Under the pieces are notes generated by a model that made no database searches, was not told where the DNA came from, and saw nothing but the letters and a program-made list of their open reading frames with translations. From sequence record PQ850617.1: a stretch of DNA of 64,000 nucleotides. One strand, written 5' to 3'. Source of the DNA: Escherichia phage ManiMatter_Bas94. How positions within the stretch are numbered: position 1 is the first letter of the stretch; the number at the start of each line of letters is the position of its first letter. Positions 18,187-37,715 of this stretch are shown here, piece by piece. The translations under genes and the position numbers were made by a program.

Positions 18187-19206
18187 ATGGCATATGGAAT
18201 ATGGTGTCAACCGGTAGGTCCGGGGCCAGCCGCCCCTGCCTCTCTTTTTATAGATAGTAATTTAACATTTCCACAATATCTAGGAGCATACAATATATCT
18301 CCTTCGTGGAGTGCTAGAAATGCTTCTTTTAACGTAGGCTCTTTTGATGGTCAAGGTGAGTTATTAATTGTCCCGACTAGTAGACTTATTCAAGATTATT
18401 ATGTAGGGACAGATTTAATGCCTAGTTTTAGTTATGTAACAGGTATAGGGACTTCTGGACAAACAGTAAATATTAACATAGAGCCTGCTGGAGCTAGTGG
18501 TAACAATAACAGAAACTTCCCAATGTCTTTCCAAGCATATAAACTCTGGCCTAGAGGTAATAGAAGCTACGGAATAACTTTCTCAAACTCAGCAGATTTC
18601 TTTTCTATCTCTGATAGTGGGGTTGTTGGTCAGTGTGTTTGGGCGTACAGAGGGGCTGTAGGAGACGGTTTTACTGTCCCTAATGCTGGCCCCAACGCTC
18701 TAGTATTTGCCAACTGGAATCAGGGTGGGGTGTGTGCTTCTTACAACGCAAGCAACGGTCAAATGATCATAACCCACGATAGATCAAACCAGTCTGGCAG
18801 TAACAGAGGTGCAGTAATATATGATATGAGAATTGCTGTTTTTGCTAGTGGTGTGGGTGTACCAGAACATAATGGAGGTCTGAATATATACTCTCCCGGA
18901 ACTACAACTTGTGTATTCTCTACTTACAGGACTCCGTTTGCTATCAGCAGGTTCTTCCCATCTAGTGGGGGTTATACAGGTCTAGGCATTCCTATGATGT
19001 GTATGAATGTCACTAATGGAGCCATAACAGCGCAAGGTGGTGGATGGATGTGGGTTCATGAAAGATCTCATACAATGAGTGGTACGTCAGTAGGAACAGG
19101 CTTTGGCCCACTCGTGGCTAACTGGACTGACCGATACCCAATCAACGTTAACATAAACCTAGGATTCAATTACCCAATGTTGGAAGGTTCTTTAATTTAT
19201 GCATAA
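18187..19206 (+). CDS. Virion protein (hypothetical)
   Basis: 339-aa ORF translationally coupled to previous gene. Confidence 0.35.
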   Translation: MAYGIWCQPVGPGPAAPASLFIDSNLTFPQYLGAYNISPSWSARNASFNVGSFDGQGELLIVPTSRLIQDYYVGTDLMPSFSYVTGIGTSGQTVNINIEPAGASGNNNRNFPMSFQAYKLWPRGNRSYGITFSNSADFFSISDSGVVGQCVWAYRGAVGDGFTVPNAGPNALVFANWNQGGVCASYNASNGQMIITHDRSNQSGSNRGAVIYDMRIAVFASGVGVPEHNGGLNIYSPGTTTCVFSTYRTPFAISRFFPSSGGYTGLGIPMMCMNVTNGAITAQGGGWMWVHERSHTMSGTSVGTGFGPLVANWTDRYPINVNINLGFNYPMLEGSLIYA

Positions 19207-19215
19207 GGAGATATT

Positions 19216-19998
19216 ATGGCAATTAGAATGGGTATCGAAGAACTAGACCCAATGGTGCAACAGGCTTCAAAGAAGTATGGAATACCAGCTGCTTTGATTC
19301 ATGCTGTAATCCAAAGGGAGTCTAGCGGTCGTCCTACGGTGGCCTCCGGAACTGGTCCTGTAGGTTTAATGCAGATCAGTAAAGGAGTAGCCAAAGATTA
19401 TGGTTACAAACTAGAAGATAGACTTGACCCGGCAAAGAACATTGATATGGGTGCTCGTTACATCAGAGACAATCTGAAAGCTTTTAATGGTGATGTTAAG
19501 AAAGCGATGGTTGGTTATTCAGAAGGTATTAGTGGTGCTAAGCAGATGTTCGCTGGTAAAAGAGGTTTTACTTCTCAGGCTCTTGACTCAATGAATAACA
19601 AACACTTTCTCCCTTTCTATGGTGACGCATCTTCTCAGATTGCTAACCCTATTGGAGCTTTACAAGCTGTTCAGCCCGTCAACCAGTTCAGTTCGGACTA
19701 TTTAGACAGAGAGAAGGCTGCACAAGCTCCAACTCAGGCAGAGATTGCTGTTTCTAAGACAGGTGCTTTAGGTGGTAATCCTGTAGAGTTTTACTCTGAT
19801 GAAGTGCAGGAAGGTGAAGACCAGAAGCCCCAACAGAACTTTGGTAATGCAGTATTAGGGGTGGCTGCTATGCTTGCTGGTAAACCTCCTACCTCTCAAA
19901 CAGTTCAGAGGGCAAGTGCACCTCATGCAGCAGGTTCTCAGTACAGCCCACAAACACAAGCAGTGCTTAGACGTCTGGCTAGCATTGGTGTTAAGTAA
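19216..19998 (+). CDS. Lytic transglycosylase (SLT domain) virion protein
   Basis: 260 aa; QRESSGRPTVASGTGPVGLMQI matches the SLT catalytic-Glu motif. Confidence 0.75.
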   Translation: MAIRMGIEELDPMVQQASKKYGIPAALIHAVIQRESSGRPTVASGTGPVGLMQISKGVAKDYGYKLEDRLDPAKNIDMGARYIRDNLKAFNGDVKKAMVGYSEGISGAKQMFAGKRGFTSQALDSMNNKHFLPFYGDASSQIANPIGALQAVQPVNQFSSDYLDREKAAQAPTQAEIAVSKTGALGGNPVEFYSDEVQEGEDQKPQQNFGNAVLGVAAMLAGKPPTSQTVQRASAPHAAGSQYSPQTQAVLRRLASIGVK

Positions 19999-20017: not shown

Positions 20018-21070
20018 ATGTCTTTATTTGGAAAATCAGCTTCTAGCAAAACCACAGTGGCTCCTTCCTCTCAGGTTGATGCCCTGCTGAAGCAGATTGT
20101 TGCTAATGCTCAGAATATGCAGAACAACGATCAGGGATTCATTTCCCAACAGCTGGCTGGGTTTAATGGCAACCAACAAGGTGCTCTGAACAACTTAGCA
20201 GCTTCTACTACTCAAAAGCAATTGGCTGATATGTACACACCTCGTACACAGCAAGGGCTAGACCAACTGAATTCTCTTGCCCAGCAGTATCAGAATATTG
20301 TTAATGGTGGTGGCCTGACTGCTGACGGTGTTAATAACTTTAGTAGAGGTTTAAACAACTCAGCTCTTGCTCAAGCTACCAGTAAAGCAGCTTCCAATGT
20401 ATCTCTTGGAAATGGTTCTGACTCAGGCTCTCTTCGTAGAGCTGCTGCTCAGGGTGCTGCTCTTAATGGTGCTAATACAAACCTCTCTCGTACCATCAAT
20501 GGTAAGAACATGGGAATTAGTGCTCTTCAACAAGATCAAAACTTCCAGAGGGGTTTGCTTGGTGCTCAGTCTGGTTTAGCTGGACAGAACCTCAATCTCG
20601 GTGCACAAGGTGTTCAGGCAACTCAGCAAGCTATCCAGAATCAACTCATGGCTGGTAATTTACAACAGCAACAAGCTCAAGCTCAAGCAGATATCAATTG
20701 GCAGAATGCTATTGGTTCTCGGCAGTATGGGTGGAATCAGCTTAACAATCAGCTTAATGTACTAAACAGTGTAAGCCCGATGGCTGGATATACGATTAAG
20801 AATGCTGCTCCGGGTATTAGTACAGGACAACAGCTCCTAGGTGCTGGTATTACTGGTTTAGGTATTGCAGGTCGTTTGGGTGCTTTCTCTCCTGACCAAC
20901 AGACTCAGAATGCTTGGAGTTCCTATAACAATTCAGGCGGGCAATCTGGAATGGCTGGTCCTATGATTGGGGGTTCTAATCTTTCTCAACAGAAAGGTCA
21001 GTCTAACTGGTTATCCACAATGGGTAATAATATCTTAGGTGGTGTCTTAGGGGCATTCGGAGCAAACTAA
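20018..21070 (+). CDS. Gln/Asn/Gly-rich internal virion protein
   Basis: 350 aa, low complexity Q/N-rich with C-terminal Gly-zipper-like hydrophobic tail. Confidence 0.45.
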   Translation: MSLFGKSASSKTTVAPSSQVDALLKQIVANAQNMQNNDQGFISQQLAGFNGNQQGALNNLAASTTQKQLADMYTPRTQQGLDQLNSLAQQYQNIVNGGGLTADGVNNFSRGLNNSALAQATSKAASNVSLGNGSDSGSLRRAAAQGAALNGANTNLSRTINGKNMGISALQQDQNFQRGLLGAQSGLAGQNLNLGAQGVQATQQAIQNQLMAGNLQQQQAQAQADINWQNAIGSRQYGWNQLNNQLNVLNSVSPMAGYTIKNAAPGISTGQQLLGAGITGLGIAGRLGAFSPDQQTQNAWSSYNNSGGQSGMAGPMIGGSNLSQQKGQSNWLSTMGNNILGGVLGAFGAN

Positions 21071-21082
21071 AGGAGATTTGAT

Positions 21083-22051
21083 ATGGCTTTATTTGGAGGA
21101 GGGAATAGTAAAACTACTTCCCAAATGATTCGCCCTGAATACATTCAACAGTATATTGACCAGCTTAGCCAACAGATTGGTAATACTAGTTCAGGGGATT
21201 ATGTTTATCGTGACAACGTAGGGTTTAATAATAACCAGATAGAAGCTCTTAACAACTTAGCACAATCTGGTGCTCTAGGGACTCTCTCGCAGCAATATAT
21301 GGATGCAGCAGGTCAAGGGTTAGGTTATCTAGATAATGCCTATAAAGGTTATCAGAGCCTTTCTGGACAGGGTGGGATTACTGGGGAGCAGATTGGTGCT
21401 CTTGCTGGTCAACTATATGATAACGATGCTGTGCAAGCAGCTATTACAGCTAATAATGAACAAGTTCAACAAAACCTAGCACGTAATGCTCTTCCTCAGC
21501 TAGCTCAACAGTATGCTGGTCAGCAGGGTTCAGGTGCTCGTATGGCTAAATCTTTTGCTCAAGGCGATGCTCTGAATCAGATGCAAGGACAAGCAACAGA
21601 TATTACCAACAGTGCCTATAATTCGGCTATCAGTCAAGCTGAAAGCATTCTCTCTGGTAATAGACAGAATCAGGCAGCTGCTCTCTCAGGTCTTTCCAAT
21701 ATTGGTTCTAACCTTTCTAACTTAGGTCAGCAAGGTGCTAATTTGTCTCAACAGCAAATGTTGAATCAATGGAATGCAGGGTTGCAGCAACAACAGCAAC
21801 AACAGAATGAATATGATAATGCCTACCAGAATGCCCAGAATGCAGCTAACTGGGGATGGCAGGATATCAATAACCAACTCGGTGCAGCAGGTGTACTTAA
21901 CGGTGCTCTTGGACAAACTACAACTACCAAAACATCTGGTGGTGGCGGTGGCTTCTTAGGTGGAGCTATGAGTGGTGCAGCGGCAGGTTCTTCCTTTGGA
22001 CCTTGGGGTGCATTGGCAGGGGGCGTAATCGGTGGGTTGGCTAGTAATTAA
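21083..22051 (+). CDS. Gln/Asn/Gly-rich internal virion protein (paralogue of previous gene)
   Basis: 322 aa; similar N-terminus (MALFGGGNSKTTSQ vs MSLFGKSASSKTTVAPSSQ) and composition. Confidence 0.45.
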   Translation: MALFGGGNSKTTSQMIRPEYIQQYIDQLSQQIGNTSSGDYVYRDNVGFNNNQIEALNNLAQSGALGTLSQQYMDAAGQGLGYLDNAYKGYQSLSGQGGITGEQIGALAGQLYDNDAVQAAITANNEQVQQNLARNALPQLAQQYAGQQGSGARMAKSFAQGDALNQMQGQATDITNSAYNSAISQAESILSGNRQNQAAALSGLSNIGSNLSNLGQQGANLSQQQMLNQWNAGLQQQQQQQNEYDNAYQNAQNAANWGWQDINNQLGAAGVLNGALGQTTTTKTSGGGGGFLGGAMSGAAAGSSFGPWGALAGGVIGGLASN

Positions 22052-22064
22052 TTAGGAGACAAAT

Positions 22065-23720
22065 ATGCAACAGACAACTTACGCTCAGGTCAGAAGTCGT
22101 GACCCGAGAAATACTTTCTATGGTGTTAATCCGGGAGCGGCTTCGGCCTCTCCTTATATGGCTAGACCTATTCAGACAGCAGATGTTTCTATGTACCGAC
22201 GTCCTTCTGTACCTCCATCTCTCGCAGGTCTTATCTCTCAGGCAGAAGAAGATCAGAATGCTATGGTGAATCCGGGATTTCAGCAACGTCTTATGGAACA
22301 ACAGAATCGAGGAACCCCAACAAGTCTTCAGGGTATTGATATTGGAGCACCAGCCCCTGTAGCAGCTAATCCTGATTTATCCACTGATCAGGGTTTACAA
22401 GATGCTGGACTTATGCCTAGCGACCCTCTTCCGGTAACGCCTCCTACTAAACCGCTAGAAGATGGCCCTATGGAGTTTACTCCTTCTCAAGTGGAACAGG
22501 CACAAGGTGTTGTTACTACTCTTGCTCAAGGTCAGGACACTGGAGACGGAATGGCTGGGGCTACTCGTATTAAAGATCAGGAACGTGTTAATAATGATAT
22601 CATGCAAATTGCTAAAGCTAAAGACCCTTCCGAAGCTTGGAATAAACTACAGAAAGAACCTTTCTATCAGAATTCCAGTTTCTATACAGGTTTGATGGGT
22701 GTAGGTCTTTCTATCATGTCAGGTAAATCTCCTATCGAAGCATTCCAAATTGGTCAGGGAATGGCTAATCAAGATGAGACTAAGAAGCAACTAGAAGCTA
22801 ACCGTGATGCTCTGATTGAACAAGGTTTCTCTCAAGACTCAATTGCAGCTGCTATTGCTAACGGAGATCCATCTCTTCTGAAGATGAAAACTATAGACCC
22901 TGCTCAAAAAGAAGCATGGTATGAGGAGCGTGAAAGACGTCAGAATGCGGAGTGGGATAGACGTCAACAGATTCAAGAGAAATCTATGCGTGAGCGTGCT
23001 GAGGAAACTCGTCGTGCTGCTGAAGAGAGGACTAACATGAACCTTGAACGTCAGAAAAAGTTGATTGACTATCGTGATAAGGTTAAGGCTGAACGTGCCG
23101 AACAAGCTGCTCAGAGTTTTAACTTCTCCCCTAAAGAGACTCGTAACGCTCAGAATACAGCTGAAGGTAAAGTTGCCACTCAGTGGGCAGAGAAAGGTGG
23201 CCTGTTTAACCAATCCAATAAAGACTTGGACTTGGCTGATAAAGCTATTAAGGACAAGGATTACCAGACGGCCCGTTCTGCTTACATGCAGGCTATCATG
23301 AACTCCGCAAGGGCTGAAATCGGTTCTACTCGTTCTCTTACTGAAGAAGACTTGGGACATTTTGCAGAAGATCCATCAATCTTCATCCGTGTAGGTAACA
23401 AGTTCGCTCTGAAGTCGGGATGGCGTCCTACTGATTCTGCTCTTGCTTATGCTCGTAAACAAGCGAACGTCGGTTACACCTCTGCTATGAAGGGTGTTGC
23501 TGATGCTAAGAAAGCTGTTATCGAAGCGTACATCGGCTCTAAGATGGATAAGAAGAGAGCTACTGCATTGGTTAACCGTGCAATCCCTTCTGGCGGTTTC
23601 TATGATCCTCTCGGTGTTTTCTCTGAGGAAGCAGAAGAGTCAGTTGGTGGTGCAGCAACCAATCCTAAACTGAATGGTGCTTTATCTGGTTCTTCAGATA
23701 CTAGCTGGTTCACTGAGTAA
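22065..23720 (+). CDS. Internal virion protein (hypothetical)
   Basis: 551-aa ORF in the internal-protein operon. Confidence 0.4.
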   Translation: MQQTTYAQVRSRDPRNTFYGVNPGAASASPYMARPIQTADVSMYRRPSVPPSLAGLISQAEEDQNAMVNPGFQQRLMEQQNRGTPTSLQGIDIGAPAPVAANPDLSTDQGLQDAGLMPSDPLPVTPPTKPLEDGPMEFTPSQVEQAQGVVTTLAQGQDTGDGMAGATRIKDQERVNNDIMQIAKAKDPSEAWNKLQKEPFYQNSSFYTGLMGVGLSIMSGKSPIEAFQIGQGMANQDETKKQLEANRDALIEQGFSQDSIAAAIANGDPSLLKMKTIDPAQKEAWYEERERRQNAEWDRRQQIQEKSMRERAEETRRAAEERTNMNLERQKKLIDYRDKVKAERAEQAAQSFNFSPKETRNAQNTAEGKVATQWAEKGGLFNQSNKDLDLADKAIKDKDYQTARSAYMQAIMNSARAEIGSTRSLTEEDLGHFAEDPSIFIRVGNKFALKSGWRPTDSALAYARKQANVGYTSAMKGVADAKKAVIEAYIGSKMDKKRATALVNRAIPSGGFYDPLGVFSEEAEESVGGAATNPKLNGALSGSSDTSWFTE

Positions 23721-23786: not shown

Positions 23787-26700
23787 ATGGCTAACATTAA
23801 ACCGTGGGAAGAAGCTTCCAAAGCTCCTGCGTATCTGAATGCCTCTCCGGAGCAACAGGCTCAAATGAGAGAACAATATAAGGCAGCAGGTGGCTTTATT
23901 CCTGAGGAACAACCAGTAGCACAACCACAACAAGAAGAACGTGGTGTTATAGGTGAGGTTGCTCAAGGTGTGTCAAATGCTCTTCAATCTGGTGGTGCAA
24001 ACATTGCAGCTAGTGCTGCTAAAGGTATTGGTGGTTTAGTTGAGATTGGTGAAGATCTAATTGGAGCACAAACTAGTTATGGTAAGCGTATCCAAGAGAA
24101 CTCTCAGAACCTTCTGAAAGAACGTATGGATAAGATTGAGGATGGGATTGGTAAAACTGCTGGTCAGTATGCTGGCGTTGTTGGTGATATTGGTTTGACA
24201 GTTACTAACCCGTTAGCTGCCGCTGCTATCATCGCAGGTCGTGAGACAGGTCGTGCATATGCAGACCAAACCCCTAAAGAGGGAGAAGACAAGTCTGTTC
24301 TGGATGCAGCCTTAGTTGGTGGTGCTAACTATGCAGCTCAGAGAATTCTTCCGGGTGCTGTTGGTACAGCTGAATCTACACTTGGTCGTATCGGTCAGAA
24401 CGTTGTTACTAACGCAGTGGCTGGTGCTAAAGGCGGTGCTCTTGTAGGTGCTGCTGAAGCTCAGAACAAATATGGTGATGACACAACCTTTGCTAATGTC
24501 TTAGAAGGCGCTATTGAAGAAGGTGCTATTGGTGCTGCATTCGGTGGTGCAGTTGGTGGTGTTCATGGCTTAATTAGCCGTCCAGATTCTGCTGTCTTCA
24601 AGAATACTCCAGAATATGCAAAGACTGACATTGCTGCTGACGATGAGCTGATTCGTAGTGCTAAGACTGTTGATGAACTGAAAGAAGCCTACTCTAAAGC
24701 TGAAACTGCTAACGCCGCTTCCGCTCTTAATCTTCTGGATGAGAATGGATTCCGTATTACTGATGCTGTTGCTTTAGATTCTCCTGCTGCTCAGCGTATT
24801 CTTAATACAGACCAAGCCAGTGCTGAGAAAGCTGCTTCTGCTCAGAAAGAGCATTCTAACATTCCGGGCCTCAATCCTTTGGCTCCTCCTGCTAAGACTC
24901 GTGGTAAAGCATTCGCTGATAACGAGCACAACCAGAAGAAAGCTGTCGCTATGAAAGATGCAATGGCTGACTACACCAAGGATAACACGAAAGTTCTTAC
25001 AGATGTTCTAGATAACCTAGACCGTGAATTAACTGCTTACCGAGCTGCTGATGATTTTACTGGCAATCCACTTGATGTCAAGAATCGCACACAAGCTGAC
25101 CGTGACTTCGTTGATGCTTATAAGACTTTCTATAATGAAGCAAATCGATTCAAAGCTCGTGATGGTGAAGACTTTAACAACTTTGTAGAGAAAGCTACTG
25201 AGCTACGGAAGATGGCTGATAACGTTTCTCCAGAGATGAAGAAAGCTATTAGTGGGTTGAAGAAACTGAAAGGTATGCCTGAAGGTTTTAACCCTATTCA
25301 AGATGCTTATACTCTGAACAATGCAGCTAAGTTCATGAGCAACCAAGACCGTGGTTGGACTTCCCTGACCGATGATGGATTCCGTGAGGCTTCTTCTCCT
25401 AGTCTGGTTATGAACACACTCGGTGCTGCTAAGTATGCTCTGAATCGCTTCTCTTCTCAGCGTGCTCGCTCTCAACGTGTTAAGCAACAAGAAGCTAACA
25501 GCGAAGCTATCCGCTCTCTGGCTCGTGGTGATTTGGAAGTTGCTCGTGCTAAATCTACTGCTGATGAAGCTCGTGCTAAAATGGAAGAAGAACCAGTTGT
25601 TGATGACATTAAATTTAAGACGCAAAATGACGTGGAAACCGAACCGGTTCGGGAGCCTTCTTCTAGTACTGTGACGGAAGAAAATCTTCCTTCTTCCACT
25701 CCTCAAGAAGCCCCTCTTACAGCTCGCGATTTAGTTGCTCAAAGACGTGCAGTTAAACAGGCAGAACAGCGTCGCGCTCAAGAAGAGGCCGCACAGGCTC
25801 CAGAACCCACTGTAGAGGAACCAACGGTTAAAGCTGAGCCATTACCTGCCCGTGCTCCTAAAGCTCCTAAGGAGTCTATACAGGACGTTAAACCGGCAAG
25901 TGGTGTAGAACGTTTAGCTGCCATGTCTAGTGCTGCTCGTCAGGCTACTATAGATCGTGCAGAACGTTTTGCTCGTTCTCTGTACTCTCAGACTGCTAAG
26001 GCTAAGGCCACTGCTGAAAACTTCTTGGCTTACAAGGGAAGTTATAGGGAGTTGATGCGTCGGATTCGTCAGGAAGATAATGCTATCAACACTGAGCGTC
26101 ATGAAGAGATGGCTCGTAATCAGCTAGCTTCTCAGCAAGGTATTGCTACTGCTAAGAACAACACTGTACGAACTAACTTTGCTGAATGGGTTAAGGAACG
26201 TGGTCTGCCAGAAGACATTGCTACTAAGGCATTACGTGCTGAAGAGAAGGGTTTAGGTGGGAACGTGACTAACTTAGATAGTCTGAAACGTCGTGCTGAA
26301 AGGTTGTATCAGAAGCAGCGTGAGGACGAGTTTGATAGACTGTATCAACAGGCTCTGGAAGAGAATAAAGCTTTTGATAAGAAGAATGCTCCTAAACTGG
26401 CTGACCAGAAGAAAGAACTTCAATCTGAGATTGATACTTTGATTGATTCAGAACCTTTACGTCCTGCTCAGAAAGATGCTATGCGTAAACTGATGAATGA
26501 CTTTGTAGATGAGAAGTTTAAATCTTCAGAGAAGGCTGGTAGGGAAGAAGCTTTGGAAGTAGGTCAGATGAAGGATATTTGGGATGGGTTTATTAACACC
26601 TATAACAGAGAAGTGAATGCCTTCAACAAAGCTAACAAGAACTCTCAGTACGAAGCTTTTGCTAAACACATACAGGCTCGTGAAGAACGTCTTGCTACTC

Positions 26701-28094
26701 TGAAAAATAAAGCTCAGGCTCGTGCTCAAGCGAAAGCTACAGCAGAAGCTGAACGTCAGTTACTCGAAGCTATTGCAGCTCAGAAGAGTGAGATTGAGAA
26801 GATGTTTGATGAGTTACCTAAACCTGTCCGCGAGGCTCAGGAAAGCCGTACTCTGAAACAGCTTGCAGCTCACCATGATAAGAACTCCCCTGTTCCTCCA
26901 GAACGTTTCCGTAGTATTATCGAACGTATCCACAACGCCGAGTCAGATTACCTTGATCGTCAGCGTCGTTTAACTGATGCAGAAGAAGATGCTCGTCAGG
27001 CTAAGTGGAACAAAATGTATGAGCAAGCGGAAGAGATGGACCGTAAGTTTGAGATAGACAAAAGGGTTAAGCGCAGTGAAGAGCTTAAAGCGGCTCAGAA
27101 GCGTGAGAATGACCTTATGGCGGTACAACGTCAACGTGACGACATCCATCGTCGCCTGATGCATACTTTGGAGGATAGGGGCATATCTAAAGAGGATGCT
27201 GAAGCATTTGCTGGTTCCTACATGGATAACCGTTATGCACTTCTTGATAAGCCTATGACTCCTACTGAACATCAGAATGCTCGTTCTCGTATTGAGGCTG
27301 ATGTTGAGAAGTTTGCTAAGAAGTACGAATCAATGACTCCTATTGAGAAAGAGATTGTTAAGGTTACTGGAGATACTGAAGGTAAGCTTGATAACTTGGA
27401 TTCGGATACTAGGAAGGCTATTGAAGAGGCTCGGAAGGTAGACTCTGATATTAAGAAACTGCAAGAGGAAGAGATGGAGATGGAGAAGATTCGTTCTGCT
27501 CTGCCTGATGATGAAAGATCTCAAGCAAATTCTGATATCTTGGAAAGCATTAAACAGCAGGAAGAAGCCTTTGCTGATAAAGCAGAGAAAGCTTTCTTGA
27601 ATGGGAAGAGCTTGGATGAGTTGGCTAGTGTGGCTGAAGTTTTAGACAGGGTTCATGGTGCAGACAAGGCTGGTAACAACCGTCGCTTTGTACGTGCATT
27701 GCAGACTGCTGCTGAAAACAAGAAGAAGTATGGTGATAATCCGGTAGCTTGGTTTAGTGCTGATGATTATTCTGCTATTGCTAAACTTGGTGCTTCTTCC
27801 GCAGGTGGTAACAAATCTAGAGCACTGGAGAAAATCTTTGGTTCTACAGCTGAACAAGCTAAGAGTAAGTTGCTTGGCAGGGATGATGTAGCGAAGATGA
27901 GACGTGTAATTGAAGAGAACCCTGATATTAAGATTCCTTCTTACAAGACAACGAATCGTACTGAGTACTTGCAGTTCTTGGAGAAGTTTAATGACGAAGG
28001 GAAGCCGAAGATTAAACGTGGCTCATTGTCAGAGAAGCTTGAACGCAGTAAGCGTCAATCGAGACTCCGTGTAAGAGTTCGATCTAAGGAGTGA
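23787..28094 (+). CDS. Large internal virion / DNA-ejection protein (putative)
   Basis: 1435 aa; N-terminal Gly/Ala-rich glycine-zipper segments followed by long charged coiled-coil region. Confidence 0.5.
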   Translation: MANIKPWEEASKAPAYLNASPEQQAQMREQYKAAGGFIPEEQPVAQPQQEERGVIGEVAQGVSNALQSGGANIAASAAKGIGGLVEIGEDLIGAQTSYGKRIQENSQNLLKERMDKIEDGIGKTAGQYAGVVGDIGLTVTNPLAAAAIIAGRETGRAYADQTPKEGEDKSVLDAALVGGANYAAQRILPGAVGTAESTLGRIGQNVVTNAVAGAKGGALVGAAEAQNKYGDDTTFANVLEGAIEEGAIGAAFGGAVGGVHGLISRPDSAVFKNTPEYAKTDIAADDELIRSAKTVDELKEAYSKAETANAASALNLLDENGFRITDAVALDSPAAQRILNTDQASAEKAASAQKEHSNIPGLNPLAPPAKTRGKAFADNEHNQKKAVAMKDAMADYTKDNTKVLTDVLDNLDRELTAYRAADDFTGNPLDVKNRTQADRDFVDAYKTFYNEANRFKARDGEDFNNFVEKATELRKMADNVSPEMKKAISGLKKLKGMPEGFNPIQDAYTLNNAAKFMSNQDRGWTSLTDDGFREASSPSLVMNTLGAAKYALNRFSSQRARSQRVKQQEANSEAIRSLARGDLEVARAKSTADEARAKMEEEPVVDDIKFKTQNDVETEPVREPSSSTVTEENLPSSTPQEAPLTARDLVAQRRAVKQAEQRRAQEEAAQAPEPTVEEPTVKAEPLPARAPKAPKESIQDVKPASGVERLAAMSSAARQATIDRAERFARSLYSQTAKAKATAENFLAYKGSYRELMRRIRQEDNAINTERHEEMARNQLASQQGIATAKNNTVRTNFAEWVKERGLPEDIATKALRAEEKGLGGNVTNLDSLKRRAERLYQKQREDEFDRLYQQALEENKAFDKKNAPKLADQKKELQSEIDTLIDSEPLRPAQKDAMRKLMNDFVDEKFKSSEKAGREEALEVGQMKDIWDGFINTYNREVNAFNKANKNSQYEAFAKHIQAREERLATLKNKAQARAQAKATAEAERQLLEAIAAQKSEIEKMFDELPKPVREAQESRTLKQLAAHHDKNSPVPPERFRSIIERIHNAESDYLDRQRRLTDAEEDARQAKWNKMYEQAEEMDRKFEIDKRVKRSEELKAAQKRENDLMAVQRQRDDIHRRLMHTLEDRGISKEDAEAFAGSYMDNRYALLDKPMTPTEHQNARSRIEADVEKFAKKYESMTPIEKEIVKVTGDTEGKLDNLDSDTRKAIEEARKVDSDIKKLQEEEMEMEKIRSALPDDERSQANSDILESIKQQEEAFADKAEKAFLNGKSLDELASVAEVLDRVHGADKAGNNRRFVRALQTAAENKKKYGDNPVAWFSADDYSAIAKLGASSAGGNKSRALEKIFGSTAEQAKSKLLGRDDVAKMRRVIEENPDIKIPSYKTTNRTEYLQFLEKFNDEGKPKIKRGSLSEKLERSKRQSRLRVRVRSKE

Positions 28095-28105
28095 TAAAAG
28101 AAAAG

Positions 28106-28145
28106 CCCTCAAGGAGAAAACCTCTTTGAGGGCTTTATTTGTTTT
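28106..28145. terminator. Terminator at convergence of late (+) and early/middle (-) blocks
   Basis: 12-bp stem GCCCTCAAGGAG/CTCTTTGAGGGC followed by TTTATTTGTTTTT on + strand; A-run on the other side. Confidence 0.7.
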
Positions 28146-28314
28146 TAGAGGTTATTGATGAAATTAATCAGACGTTCTTCACTATCATCAAAAGCTTTTC
28201 CAGCTGCTTCCATGTCCCAAGTATTGGCATTGTCAATAAAGCTCTGAGCTTCTAATAGATCGTGGATTAAGTCGAAGAGTTTATTTTTATCTGATTGTGT
28301 GATCATGTAAGTTC

Positions 28315-34540: not shown

Positions 34541-35243
34541 TCATATATTCGACAAGAGCCGCAACACTCTCGCCCGTTCTCTTATGAACTGCTACATGTC
34601 GCCATGTAGGATAGACTATATCATCACCCTCTGTCGAGGGGTTGGGCGCTTCCACCGGCATTAGCTTCCGGTGTACTCCTTTCGGATAGTCGTTGCACCT
34701 TCAAGTATTCTATAGCTGTTTCTAATCGGCTAACATCATCTTTCAATAGCCCTAAAGCTCTGTTGCAGTTGTGACACAACAGACCGCGTATTACTCCGGA
34801 TTCATGGCAATGATCAACCACAAGTTTAATTCTGTGATGTGTTGCCATTGCAAACCCTTCGCCCTTACAGATAGCACACTTCCCATCCTGATCAGCGTAC
34901 ATCTTTTCGTAATCGCTGGCTGTGATTCCATAAATTCGTTTGAAGTAGGAATTTCTCCAGCCCCTATCTTTGCATTCATCAGAGCAATAATGTTCAGATG
35001 GTGCATTTGGTTGAAAATCTTTTGAGCAATTACGACAAGGTTTTGGATTGAACCGACCTTGAGGGTATTTACTTGCCTCAGCAGTCTGTTCTTCTTTAGT
35101 TTTAGTTACAGTTGTATATTCCATAAGCACCTCCATGTTGAGTTGCTATAGAATACTTGCTTGGCTCAGGATTGTCTACTAGAGAGTTTCCCTGAGTTCA
35201 CCCAATTTAATCGACGAGATTACTCTCGAAGTATCCATTTACG
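34541..35243 (-). mobile_element. Intervening sequence in polymerase gene (probable group I intron carrying an HNH homing endonuclease)
   Basis: About 700 nt between polymerase motif B halves (exon 1 ends ...PTRDNAKTFI-stop); contains free-standing HNH ORF with own start; exon 2 has no in-frame AUG before conserved residues. Confidence 0.55.
34624..35136 (-). CDS. HNH homing endonuclease (intron-encoded, putative)
   Basis: 170 aa; DHCHESGVIRGLLCHNCNRALG HNH motif plus Cys-rich zinc-binding segments. Confidence 0.75.
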   Translation of the reverse strand: MEVLMEYTTVTKTKEEQTAEASKYPQGRFNPKPCRNCSKDFQPNAPSEHYCSDECKDRGWRNSYFKRIYGITASDYEKMYADQDGKCAICKGEGFAMATHHRIKLVVDHCHESGVIRGLLCHNCNRALGLLKDDVSRLETAIEYLKVQRLSERSTPEANAGGSAQPLDRG

Positions 35244-36596
35244 TCAGATAAACGTTTTAGCGTTGTCACGAGTAGGAAGACCAGCAAGTTTCTGGTTGTG
35301 GGAGTGGATATCACCTTCAAGAAGGATATCACGATACATAATAGCAGAAGCTAAACCACGTTCTGCCAGAGCTTTCTTAGCTGGATTATTCTCTTCGATT
35401 GCTTCAGCAAGCATATCCCTACATTCTTTAATGAGGTAGTGAGCGAGCATACGAAGTTCAAGTCCAGAACCATCATACCCTAAGAATACTTCTTTACCAG
35501 CGGGTATGTAATATTTGTAAGCACCTACAGGCTTATCTTTCTTCCCCGGCTTACCTTTCTCGTAAATTACGTTAGTACCTTTTCGTATATAACAACCATC
35601 AGGAACAACGTTAGTAATAACGAAAGGACGAGAGTGATCACTGTCTGAATTATAGTCAGACTCAAACAAACTGCGACACTCATGACCAAACAAACCACGG
35701 GAGGGAATATTAACCACGATACGATGTTTGAATCGAAAAGTTGGCGTAGCGCAGCTGTTAGCTTCTGCCGAAAGTTTACCATCTTCGCGTTCCTTTGCTA
35801 TGAGTCCACTGATAAGACCTAGCCTGTGAGCCGCTACAACGCGCCTCTTAAGCAAACTTCCAACACTCCCTAGCTCGCCCCCTAACCCTTCTTCAAGAGT
35901 CTCCTCGAGGTTTGTAGGAGCTGTAGGCCACTTGTTTGAGGTAGCTAGTGCTATCTTAATCTCATCAAACGTGATAGGTCTACGTCGGTTAGGGTTTAAA
36001 CCTAAACCAAACACATAAGCCTTCATATAGTTCTTAGTCTTAAACCTAAAATGCTTCTCTAAGAACCTCCTAATATCTGCGTCAACCATCTCGGCTGTCT
36101 GCTTCTGTTTAGCATTACCTCGAATCCAAGCTGAATACCACGCTTGGTATGTTCCATACTTTCGTATATCTTTCTTGATTTCAAAAGTATTCCAAGGTTT
36201 CTTTGATACGTTAAACTCTGGAGGAAGAAAACCCTCATCCATAAGGGCTTCTTTAACTCGTGCATCTTTCGATGGGTCAAAGTCCACGTATTCAACACAG
36301 GTGAATGCTCCACCAATGTCTTCTCTCTTAAGGCCAACTCTATCACAATAGGCTTGAGGCCACTTCTGTAAAGCTCCAGACTTCTTAAATGGCTTCATAT
36401 AAGTAGAGCCATCTAATCTCATCTTAGGTAAGAGAGGGATCAGTTCTTTGTCGATATTAACAATAATCTCTTTAAGGAGGTGAACATACCACCGAGCATT
36501 TCTTCGGTTGAAACTCACTCCGTGCTTCGCTTGCTTAGAGATTATATCAGCGACAGTCATCTCTGTCAAAAATGGGAGAGCGTCCGGGTTGCTCAC
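35244..36596 (-). CDS. DNA polymerase (family A, T7 gp5-like), exon 1 (polymerase domain, N-terminal part)
   Basis: 450 aa; motif A GYDGSGLELRMLAHY; ends in motif B ...GDIHSHNQKLAGLPTRDNAKTFI, nearly identical to T7 ...GDIHTKNQIAAELPTRDNAKTFI. Confidence 0.8.
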   Translation of the reverse strand: MSNPDALPFLTEMTVADIISKQAKHGVSFNRRNARWYVHLLKEIIVNIDKELIPLLPKMRLDGSTYMKPFKKSGALQKWPQAYCDRVGLKREDIGGAFTCVEYVDFDPSKDARVKEALMDEGFLPPEFNVSKKPWNTFEIKKDIRKYGTYQAWYSAWIRGNAKQKQTAEMVDADIRRFLEKHFRFKTKNYMKAYVFGLGLNPNRRRPITFDEIKIALATSNKWPTAPTNLEETLEEGLGGELGSVGSLLKRRVVAAHRLGLISGLIAKEREDGKLSAEANSCATPTFRFKHRIVVNIPSRGLFGHECRSLFESDYNSDSDHSRPFVITNVVPDGCYIRKGTNVIYEKGKPGKKDKPVGAYKYYIPAGKEVFLGYDGSGLELRMLAHYLIKECRDMLAEAIEENNPAKKALAERGLASAIMYRDILLEGDIHSHNQKLAGLPTRDNAKTFI

Positions 36597-36612
36597 TTTA
36601 TACTCCTTTAAA

Positions 36613-37035
36613 TTATTGGTAAAGTAAATCTGTAAATGCTTGGTTGTCTTCTACTACATCTAGCAAGGTTGCTTCGTTACTATAAGACCTAACCGTCCCG
36701 TTGACAACTGTCCGAGTAGGAGAGGGAGGTGGTGTATGGTTAGCTCTAGCTTCGCGAGGTTGCTCTCGTACTAAATGAGCCATAGCCATTTGGTTAGCGA
36801 CTTCTTCTCTTTCTCGAATAGCTCTCTGAATATAAGCTAGCTTCATGCCCCAAGCTTCTTCAAATTCTTGAGGATGTTTGTCACTGATAACCACATATTG
36901 ACGTTCAGGGATACCAGAGCGAATCTCTGATAAGAGTTCACAGAACAAATCCAGTTCGTGTTCAGTGAGATTCATTTCGATATCATCCCACTTGAGAACT
37001 AGGAAACGGTTTTGATATCTAGTCGGTAATGGCAT
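36613..37035 (-). CDS. Hypothetical protein
   Basis: 140-aa ORF upstream of polymerase. Confidence 0.4.
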   Translation of the reverse strand: MPLPTRYQNRFLVLKWDDIEMNLTEHELDLFCELLSEIRSGIPERQYVVISDKHPQEFEEAWGMKLAYIQRAIREREEVANQMAMAHLVREQPREARANHTPPPSPTRTVVNGTVRSYSNEATLLDVVEDNQAFTDLLYQ

Positions 37036-37038
37036 AGC

Positions 37039-37293
37039 TTAACCTTTAGGGAATGGGATGAGGTTTTCTACTGCAACACGGAATTCTTTCTCTACATCTT
37101 TATTCTTATAAGAAATGAATTTCCCATCAGCACCACGGAGGATTACGTTAGTGCGAGCTGTTTTTGGGTTATGACTGATTTGGTTTGCAATGAGACTAAT
37201 GTTGAGTTTAGTGTTGTGGTTATTGGTGAATTTCCACTTAGCCAGACGATTAGTCATTACATCAATGATAGTTACAGTTTTTACAATAGACAT
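37039..37293 (-). CDS. Hypothetical protein
   Basis: 84-aa ORF. Confidence 0.4.
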   Translation of the reverse strand: MSIVKTVTIIDVMTNRLAKWKFTNNHNTKLNISLIANQISHNPKTARTNVILRGADGKFISYKNKDVEKEFRVAVENLIPFPKG

Positions 37294-37326
37294 AGTTATT
37301 ACCTAAGAAGTTTAGTTTGGTTTATA

Positions 37327-37356
37327 TAAAAGAAAAGGCCACCCATTTGGGTAGCC
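37327..37356 (-). terminator. Rho-independent terminator
   Basis: On - strand GGCTACCC-AAAT-GGGTGGCC followed by TTTTCTTTTATATAAA. Confidence 0.6.
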
Positions 37357-37361
37357 TCATA

Positions 37362-37679
37362 TTACGATGAGCTTAAAGCTCCTTTGCGTGCTCCAGCTGC
37401 CTTCCCAGTTCGATCTCCACTTTTGCCGCCAGCTGAACGATTTCCGCTGACTGTTTCAACACGTAAGTTGCTTGACGCATTAGAGCCTCCTGACTTGATA
37501 GCTCGTTTGTGTCCAACGTCTTTACCTCTGACAGCAGCTTTTCCATCGCGCTTTTCAACGATGCGACGTGCACGGTGGCGCTGAGCATCTCCGCTCTTGC
37601 TACCAATTCCCGTTTCACCCCTTGCGATGGCGGTACGTCTTTCTTGTGCATAATCTCTCTTTCCTACATGGTCTGCCAT
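37362..37679 (-). CDS. Gly/Arg/Lys-rich disordered protein (KGG-repeat stress-protein-like)
   Basis: 105 aa; strong AAGGAG RBS 8 nt upstream; composition like YciG/KGG stress proteins; own promoter motif and terminator. Confidence 0.45.
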   Translation of the reverse strand: MADHVGKRDYAQERRTAIARGETGIGSKSGDAQRHRARRIVEKRDGKAAVRGKDVGHKRAIKSGGSNASSNLRVETVSGNRSAGGKSGDRTGKAAGARKGALSSS

Positions 37680-37715
37680 TTAGAACTCCTTAATATATCA
37701 GTGTACACTAAGGAG

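Follow-up and report, generated by a model that had tools for sequence, protein, structure and literature searches.

The window analysed here, a stretch of 64,000 nucleotides from Escherichia phage ManiMatter_Bas94 (PQ850617.1), comes from a phiEco32/SU10-like (Kuravirus-like) E. coli podophage, with 97% identity to phages Bas93 and LAMP and about 91.5% to phiEco32. It harbors two adjacent open reading frames, hereafter A and B, which encode proteins of 350 and 322 amino acids, are separated by 12 nt and each display an AGGAG-type ribosome-binding site 6-8 nt 5' of the gene (Table 1). An earlier reading, made from the DNA letters only, had delineated both frames, and they were found exactly where it had placed them. 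The extreme Q/N/G/A/S composition that it ascribed to the two products was likewise borne out: A consists of 62.3% of these residues (26.6% Q+N) with 7.1% D/E/K/R, and B of 62.7% (25.8% Q+N) with 8.1% charged residues, both being devoid of Cys and His and containing 9-10% Leu. For comparison, neighbouring virion proteins show 10-17% Q+N and, with the exception of the DUF6453 protein (8.6%), 18-33% charged residues.

Table 1. Genes and protein segments of the A/B locus (positions in the 64,000-nt window)
Feature	Position	Strand	Basis
SLT lytic transglycosylase, 260 aa, SU10 gp20 ortholog, upstream	19216..19998	+	Pfam SLT E=2e-23; phrog_12507
Gene A, Q/N-rich ejection protein, 350 aa, SU10 gp21 / phiEco32 gp23 ortholog	20018..21070	+	ORF, ATG start; SU10_021 95%; phrog_4287; Bas93 annotation
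A residues 1-255, conserved N-terminal motif (MxLFG..TT) and Q/N-rich, low-charge, predicted alpha-helical domain	20018..20782	+	alignments; AF2
A residues 262-292, uncharged G/A-rich segment (GQQLLGAGITGLGIAGRLGAF)	20801..20893	+	hydropathy maximum of A; G266/G270/G275/G288 nearly invariant
A residues 327-350, second uncharged Gly-rich C-terminal segment (..NILGGVLGAFGAN)	20996..21067	+	composition; kept in close A-type homologs
Gene B, Q/N-rich ejection protein, 322 aa, SU10 gp22 / phiEco32 gp24 ortholog	21083..22051	+	ORF, ATG start; SU10_022 97%; phrog_4287
B residues 284-322, glycine-zipper tail	21932..22048	+	G-x3-G ladder 286-306, Pro307, ladder 309-317
551-aa protein, SU10 gp23 position, downstream, gp15-like size/position slot	22065..23720	+	phrog_12130; synteny
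1435-aa protein, SU10 gp24 position, downstream, gp16-like size/position slot	23787..28094	+	phrog_14629

The sequence-only reading had further taken A and B for tandem paralogs with similar N-termini. The N-termini are indeed alike (A, MSLFGKSASSKTT; B, MALFGGGNSKTT), and pairwise alignment confirmed the paralogy: BLASTP with compositional adjustment gave 32% identity over 275 aa (E = 1e-11), while the Smith-Waterman score of 268 compares with 96±13 for 1000 global shuffles (z = 13), 114±15 for shuffles inside 20-aa windows (z = 10), and 103 for the reversed-sequence control. Both proteins match the phrog_4287 profile, A with E = 1e-115 over residues 1-350 and B with E = 1.6e-106 over residues 1-310. 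Judged by these alignments, A and B are true paralogs that have diverged within a single family of podophage ejection (internal virion) proteins, phrog_4287. They stem from a lineage-specific duplication, Grimontviridae carrying a single copy. A tblastn search of phage genomes with A returned only Gordonclarkvirinae-like records; low-complexity filtering kept it from finding even paralog B.

In the Kuravirus SU10, the counterparts of A and B are gp21 (95% identity) and gp22 (97%), which match them in length and lie in the same module of five genes. LC-MS/MS of SU10 virions recovered both (coverage 53% and 49%; PMC4281155), so that the earlier claim of virion proteins holds through these orthologs. 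SU10 particles lose gp20-24 when the genome is released, and these proteins, classed as ejection proteins, lie inside the head with their density not resolved (PMC9509320). Packaging in the prolate head and departure from the particle with genome release have thus been shown for SU10-type orthologs (95-97% identical), both virion presence and loss being SU10 results. That A and B are ejection proteins, as the earlier reading had suggested, is already known, since Bas93 carries the annotation "DNA ejection protein" for both genes, the B ortholog phiEco32 gp24 is labelled "putative DNA injection protein", and the orthologs have been assigned experimentally.

The genes follow one another as in SU10 (SLT, A, B, 551 aa, about 1400 aa), and this five-gene module, with its proteins of about 550 and about 1400 aa, persists in contigs whose A and B reach only 40-50% identity. 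In SU10, gp20 was assigned as an ejected transglycosylase (PMC9509320), and gp23 is present in the virion and ejected (PMC9509320, PMC4281155). Podophage ejection operons follow a rule whereby a small membrane protein precedes the tunnel protein and then a large inner-membrane protein (PMC8954989); set against this rule, A and B sit where the first small gene is expected, before those for the tunnel and the large inner-membrane protein. In this position they resemble T7 gp14, P22 gp7 and DEV gp73, which are small outer-membrane pore subunits of DNA ejectosomes and with which they also have in common ejection from the head, helical character and hydrophobic segments (PMC8954989). In contrast to that group, A and B are duplicated, exceed its members in size by a factor of about 1.6, and carry one or two Gly-rich tails (Kyte-Doolittle 0.94-1.26) instead of 4-5 predicted transmembrane helices. 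With single-sequence templates, which make for a weak test, hhalign detected no similarity to T7 gp14 (probability 0.07%) and gp15, and at most 1.1% probability (for gp7) among P22 gp7, gp20 and gp16; BLASTP of the 551- and 1435-aa proteins against LUZ24 gp51 and gp50 gave no similarity. The 1435-aa protein combines an N-terminal G/A-rich hydrophobic region, which contains the most hydrophobic single window of the module (Kyte-Doolittle maximum 1.58 at aa 131), with a highly charged remainder, and shows a weak Gly-zipper_YMGG match (aa 205-261, E = 0.025). The longest uncharged G/A/S-rich segments of the module are those of A and B.

The earlier reading had described the C-termini of A and B as GxxxG-rich and hydrophobic; the glycine ladders and the lack of charge stood, whereas the tails proved only moderately hydrophobic, with 19-residue Kyte-Doolittle maxima of 1.26 (A) and 0.94 (B) against the value of about 1.6 usual for transmembrane helices. 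The 39-residue tail of B contains no charged residue and 69% G/A/S, and displays an i+4 ladder (G286-G290-G294-G298-G302-G306, then P307, then G309-G313-G317) of which 7 glycines are nearly invariant in homologs down to about 40% identity (63-sequence alignment). Residues 262-292 of A show a small-xxx-small pattern that is less regular than this ladder. Their G-x3-G ladders and uncharged stretch of about 40 residues liken A and B to Pfam Gly-zipper_Omp, Gly-zipper_YMGG and Rick_17kDa_Anti. However, full-length A and B had no Pfam glycine-zipper match at E ≤ 0.1, and the isolated tails had none at cut-off among PF13488, PF13441 and PF05433, the best being Rick_17kDa_Anti (PF05433; E = 4, 7.9 bits versus a cut-off of 24.2); the likeness is therefore one of motif type and not of family membership. 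P0146, a distant member of the A/B family, gave sub-threshold Pfam glycine-zipper matches (E = 2e-4). A literature search retrieved no paper connecting glycine zippers to ejection proteins. We infer that A and B could insert into a membrane through their Gly-rich tails.

Upstream of the tails, the Q/N-rich part is predicted to be helical. AF2 monomers built from 57- and 63-sequence alignments were of low confidence (pLDDT 50 and 48), the model of A, at pLDDT 50, showing helices to residue 252, and the Q/N-rich part of B has an amphipathic periodicity of 3.5-3.7 residues. A Foldseek comparison of the B model with the PDB yielded only generic coiled-coil or long-helix matches, all with E > 1, which were disregarded, and PDB sequence searches with A, B and the family profile retrieved nothing relevant.

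At 50% identity, the large A/B family resolves into 622 clusters. Among 141 new representatives (P0113-P0253; 9 other rows, corresponding to proteins found already, were left out), about two-thirds carry a Gly-rich uncharged segment at about residues 260-330. Long fusion forms exist, with peptidoglycan hydrolase domains in 7 of the 47 long members scanned. In many relatives the Gly tail is followed by a Peptidase_S74 domain, an intramolecular chaperone that folds trimeric fibres; a Pfam scan found it absent from A and B. The phrog_4287 proteins of Grimontviridae and other prolate podophages (Cronobacter GAP52 gp094, Salmonella 7-11, Aeromonas and Proteus phages) share with A and B the N-terminal helical Q/N-rich domain and the Gly-rich segment (hhalign probability 99.4%, E = 4.6e-22) and, like them, are followed by proteins of about 550 and 1300 aa. 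They differ in being single-copy, about 400-410 aa long, and in having a C-terminal Peptidase_S74 domain (aa 328-382, at the Pfam cut-off), whereas both Kuravirus paralogs are without it.

A more remote relative lies in Bruynoghevirus, where LUZ24 gp53 (313 aa), which genus, length and synteny equate with Pa223 gp56, is a virion protein of similar size that heads the ejection operon and bears the same tail (..GGT..T.SGGGGG..LG.A.GA..G..FGGP.G..), but is single-copy and has another N-terminus. LUZ24 gp53 matches phrog_4287 (E = 2e-10), and its family profile aligns with that of A/B (hhalign 87.7%, E = 3.4e-6) over 114 columns of the C-terminal half only, a score that shared composition could inflate. 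A and B had no direct match to phrog_7477, the PHROG of the LUZ24 gp53/Pa223 gp56 family, while two bridging sequences, P0144 and P0156, match both PHROGs. Taken at the level of sequence, the A/B family is probably distantly related to LUZ24 gp53/Pa223 gp56. Pa223 gp56 is a virion protein proposed to be a gp14-like outer-membrane channel, with predicted transmembrane helices at 278-311 in a tail equivalent to those of A and B; its channel role is itself a prediction (MemBrain, AlphaFold3) and not experimental (bioRxiv 10.1101/2025.06.11.659172).

We favour, with a probability of roughly 60%, a reading in which A and B are paralogous ejection proteins acting as small membrane-active channel subunits, which would extend the nozzle and whose tails would anchor in or perforate a host membrane. 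After formation of the tail nozzle and loss of the needle, both proteins would thread through the portal and tail channel as extended chains, a passage that their Cys-free, low-charge, Q/N/G/A/S-rich composition would suit, and would then refold as amphipathic helical oligomers that lengthen the nozzle, the C-terminal glycine-zipper tails engaging the membrane. The two proteins would thereby occupy the slot of T7 gp14, DEV gp73 and Pa223 gp56, namely that of a small, membrane-active subunit encoded ahead of the 551-aa tunnel and the 1435-aa large inner-membrane protein, while the separate upstream SLT protein would cut peptidoglycan; A and B may form either one hetero-oligomer or act at two sites (e.g. 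outer versus inner membrane). Action in the cell envelope is supported by the hydrolase fusions, the recurrent Gly segment, the near-invariant ladder and the amphipathic periodicity of B. The S74 domains of relatives, on the other hand, hint at trimers rather than at 6-9-mer channels.

This last point also belongs to an alternative that we regard as unlikely, albeit one that retains some weight, namely that A and B are ejected but remain soluble, as part of a periplasmic conduit or as a nozzle-tip plug or adaptor forming a trimeric coiled-coil, needle-like extension, with the tails serving as packing or oligomerisation motifs or as linkers. The tail hydropathy, under the transmembrane threshold, the lack of a Pfam glycine-zipper match, the long amphipathic helices predicted for the bulk of both proteins and the S74 domain placed directly after the Gly segment in many relatives all favour this alternative; yet no part of B is better conserved than the glycine ladder, the equivalent Pa223 gp56 tail is predicted to be transmembrane, and the podophage ejectosome requires a membrane-active subunit, for which A and B offer the longest uncharged G/A/S-rich segments of the module. 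It is improbable that A and B serve chiefly inside the head, leaving with the DNA and building no channel, whether as a core or spacer organising or pressurising the packaged DNA or as co-injected host-takeover or anti-defence factors. Although the location of the orthologs inside the head, the unusual low-complexity-like composition and the lack of detectable homology to structurally defined channel subunits agree with this idea, the near absence of positive charge speaks against DNA binding, the genes lie in a conserved ejection operon adjoining a transglycosylase, family members are fused to cell-wall hydrolases, and a PHROGs search gave no defence or anti-defence match. Finally, the prion-like character noted earlier stood as regards Q/N richness (about 26%, with a QQQQQQQ run at residues 235-241 of B) but not as regards behaviour, and we dropped a prion-like or amyloid-forming domain acting through self-templating aggregation as extremely improbable, composition being its sole support, for the Q/N positions are aligned and conserved among homologs at 40-50% identity and do not drift as in a low-complexity domain, the region is predicted helical and amphipathic, Leu is abundant, and Q+N richness (about 11-29%, mostly 20% or more) is common to the ejection protein family, enzyme-fused members included.

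Extending the membrane-active channel reading to the whole family, we tentatively propose, as a possibility with less than even odds, that A/B proteins represent a single class of small ejectosome subunit that acts on membranes, is very widespread, has no sequence relationship to T7 gp14 and would unite Kuravirus, Grimontviridae, Bruynoghevirus and many uncultured podophages. Its unit would be the Q/N-rich helical domain plus the glycine-zipper tail, ancestrally folded and released by S74 or cut from a hydrolase-bearing polyprotein; in Kuraviruses the chaperone would have been lost and the gene duplicated, A and B forming a hetero-oligomeric membrane pore. We know of no structure or mechanism for any member of the family. 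The finding itself is of little weight and its residual value is comparative: the conserved glycine ladder, the lineage-specific duplication, the S74 domain of relatives and the cell-wall hydrolase fusions provide handles for mutagenesis, and could guide cryo-ET on nozzle extension across the envelope by prolate podophages, several of which are used in phage-therapy collections. A and B show no material difference from their SU10 and phiEco32 orthologs; the phage of the window itself falls within the shorter-genome (about 68.5 kb) LAMP/Bas93 sub-lineage.

Genes A and B, the tandem pair that the sequence-only reading had described as encoding proteins of 350 and 322 aa, were found as claimed; an AGGAG-type ribosome-binding site stands before each, and 12 nt separate the two. 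The region shares 97% DNA identity with Escherichia phages AidaStucki_Bas93 and LAMP, and about 91.5% with phiEco32 and the other Kuraviruses among the matches listed (Gordonclarkvirinae). The pair is already known and annotated: both counterparts in Bas93 are labelled "DNA ejection protein", those of phiEco32 are gp23 (hypothetical) and gp24 ("putative DNA injection protein"), and the PHROG family phrog_4287 ("DNA ejection protein") matches both A and B over their full length. Phage SU10 gp21 is 95% identical to A and gp22 97% identical to B; both were detected by LC-MS/MS in SU10 virions (gp21, 35.9 kDa, 53% coverage; gp22, 33.3 kDa, 49% coverage) (PMC4281155), in keeping with the earlier proposal that A and B are virion proteins. 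No density is assignable to gp21 or gp22 (PMC9509320), and the orthologs are packaged in the head and leave it with the genome (PMC4281155, PMC9509320). The upstream SLT lytic transglycosylase, A, B, and the downstream 551- and 1435-aa proteins are the five SU10 ejection proteins. The observation is confirmed, and published experiments on near-identical orthologs support its interpretation; we put the probability of A and B being ejection proteins at about 0.9. Our own additions are modest: the duplication is demonstrated, the family is shown to be broad and to include domain fusions, a tie to the Bruynoghevirus gp56 class is probable, and relatives carry a Peptidase_S74 domain.

Positions and properties of genes A and B, their neighbours and related loci (positions in the window unless a record is named)
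Feature	Position	Strand	Length (aa)	Q+N	Q/N/G/A/S	D/E/K/R	Cys/His	Remark
DUF6453 / phrog_1265 protein	18187-19206		339			8.6%		between tail-tip fibre and SLT gene
SLT lytic transglycosylase	19216..19998							Pfam SLT, E=2e-23
A	20018..21070	+	350	26.6%	62.3%	7.1%	none	ORF, ATG start
B	21083..22051	+	322	25.8%	62.7%	8.1%	none	ORF, ATG start
551-aa protein	22065..23720		551
1435-aa protein	23787..28094		1435
Neighbouring virion proteins				10-17%	32-43%	18-33%, sole exception DUF6453	varies
GAP52 gp094	L007:7947-9179 (Cronobacter phage GAP52)							Peptidase_S74
Split DNA polymerase I, Bas93	35161-37711 (Bas93)							endonuclease VII gene inside
Corresponding window region	about 34950-37500	minus						placed by offset from Bas93

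The extreme Gln/Asn/Gly/Ala/Ser content noticed earlier was borne out by the measured composition. The DUF6453 protein, also poor in charge, has 13% aromatic residues, and its phrog_1265 label, "membrane protein, moron", looks misleading for a gene lying inside the tail/ejection module. Because composition is so extreme, the similarity claimed for A and B was controlled by shuffling, both globally and within 20-residue windows. The two proteins begin with a common M-x-L-F-G..K-T-T and align with 32% identity across 275 residues (E=1e-11, with compositional adjustment); their Smith-Waterman score of 268 compares with 96+-13 for global shuffles (z=13) and 114+-15 for windowed shuffles (z=10), and similarity is significant separately in the N-terminal (z=13) and the central/C-terminal part (z=9). 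Real paralogy, and not composition, thus explains the match.

The sequence-only reading had described GxxxG-rich hydrophobic C-terminal segments. B ends in 39 uncharged residues (69% G/A/S) carrying a regular i+4 ladder (G286, G290, G294, G298, G302, G306, then Pro307, G309, G313 and G317), while in A a small-xxx-small segment at residues 262-292 is less regular, and a second Gly-rich end lies at 327-350. Since hydrophobicity is moderate (Kyte-Doolittle 19-residue maxima of 1.26 for A and 0.94 for B) and no Pfam glycine-zipper model matches either tail, the term "glycine-zipper" suits the motif without placing the tails in a family. Elsewhere in the module, hydrophobic stretches rich in G/A lie close to the N-terminus of the 1435-aa protein (residues about 58-78, 120-150 and 205-261), with a Kyte-Doolittle maximum of 1.58 at aa 131 and a weak Gly-zipper_YMGG match at 205-261 (E=0.025); the remainder of this protein is 33% charged and rich in Ala/Glu/Lys/Arg. 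One moderately hydrophobic G/A-containing segment also occurs in the SLT protein (aa about 208-230), and one in the 551-aa protein (aa 199-220).

On shared phage contigs, homologs extend down to 41% identity for the A type and 35% for the B type, and distant relatives keep the module (SLT, A, B, a ~500-aa protein and a 1100-1400-aa protein). In a neighbour-joining tree, built with no bootstrap values, A-type and B-type proteins split into two sister clades, and the GAP52-like single-copy proteins of ~400 aa branch outside them. GAP52 gp094 is clearly homologous to A and B (hhalign probability 99.4%, E=4.6e-22), unlike the gene that follows it. The duplication is therefore old and confined to the Kuravirus-like lineage. 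When 1.84 billion representative proteins were searched with a family profile, 622 matched at E<=1e-3, 86 of them at E<=1e-10; many are 700-1850 aa long and low in charge, with the A/B-type domain at the extreme N-terminus. Among 141 new representatives of that search (P0113-P0253), Q+N makes up about 11-29% of the first 300 residues (20% or more in most), and about two-thirds have a Gly-rich uncharged segment at about residues 260-330. Peptidoglycan hydrolase domains were identified by Pfam in 7 of 47 long members (SLT 3, Hydrolase_2 2, Phage_lysozyme2 1, Peptidase_M15_4 1), and Peptidase_S74 in 9 of the 47. In proteins of uncultured phages (P0152-P0253), the A/B-type domain heads chains of 700-1850 aa, some with hydrolase domains, so that small ejection subunit and cell-wall hydrolase form one polypeptide in some of these phages and separate genes in the window.

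Peptidase_S74 is an intramolecular chaperone that folds trimers and cleaves itself. By a local iterative search, about 28 members of the family have an S74-like domain directly behind the Gly-rich segment; Pfam recognizes it at gathering threshold in GAP52 gp094 and also in several ~380-aa proteins (bearers include proteins P0047, P0143, P0180, P0186 and P0152). Its presence on an internal ejection protein was unexpected. The arrangement hints that these relatives fold as trimers and that proteolysis frees a mature protein with a glycine-zipper end; the domain is absent from both A and B, having been lost from the two Kuravirus paralogs.

The structures closest to the tail parts of SU10 are those of the Bruynoghevirus Pa223. 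Its mapped ejection operon encodes gp56 (313 aa), put forward as a gp14-like outer-membrane channel, with transmembrane helices predicted at 278-291 and 296-311 and a hollow nonamer predicted by AlphaFold3, as well as gp54 (505 aa, periplasmic tunnel) and gp53 (1055 aa, inner-membrane complex) (bioRxiv 10.1101/2025.06.11.659172). LUZ24 gp53, gp51 and gp50 agree exactly with Pa223 gp56, gp54 and gp53 in length and order. LUZ24 gp53 matches phrog_4287 (E=2e-10), and its tail (..GGTNVTTSSGGGGGGGLGSALGALGGASLGALFGGPAGASVG..) resembles that of B; the profile of its family (five sequences) matches the A/B profile with 88% probability (E=3.4e-6, 114 columns), and sequences P0144 and P0156 each match both PHROGs (phrog_4287 and phrog_7477, the LUZ24 gp53 family). 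A/B and LUZ24 gp53 are thus probably distant homologs, short of proof because common composition may inflate the scores. BLASTP found no similarity between the larger Kuravirus ejection proteins and their LUZ24 counterparts, and by hhalign A and B show none to P22 gp7/gp20/gp16 or T7 gp14/gp15. No PDB relative was found by sequence or profile, and Foldseek matches for the B model were meaningless.

Operon order (PMC8954989), the likeness to Pa223, conservation of the glycine ladder and the fusions to hydrolases lead us to infer that A and B are the ejectosome's small membrane-active subunits. In this role the two would lengthen the nozzle and anchor in or perforate a host membrane, the SLT protein would cut peptidoglycan, and the 551- and 1435-aa proteins would build the tunnel and the inner-membrane part. 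Low charge, absence of Cys, Q/N/G/A/S richness and helix propensity fit threading through a narrow channel and subsequent refolding, with support from AF2 secondary structure (in low-confidence models) and from a significant periodicity of 3.5-3.7 residues in B. Insertion of the tails into a membrane, as part of a channel, is an even bet. One rival reading, favoured by the low tail hydropathy and the S74 chaperone of relatives, takes A and B as a soluble, perhaps trimeric, helical extension. A further rival takes them as passive internal head proteins or co-injected proteins. A third, prion-like aggregation, has nothing but the composition in its favour.

ARAGORN predicted no tRNA genes in the 64 kb. 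DNA polymerase I of Bas93 is annotated as a two-part join that encloses a gene for endonuclease VII, so that an intron carrying a homing endonuclease is likely; several HNH endonuclease genes lie nearby. In the window, the virion module occupies the + strand (1-28094), followed by replication/early genes on the minus strand, and the sign of the GC skew flips at this switch in gene orientation (about 28000-28300).
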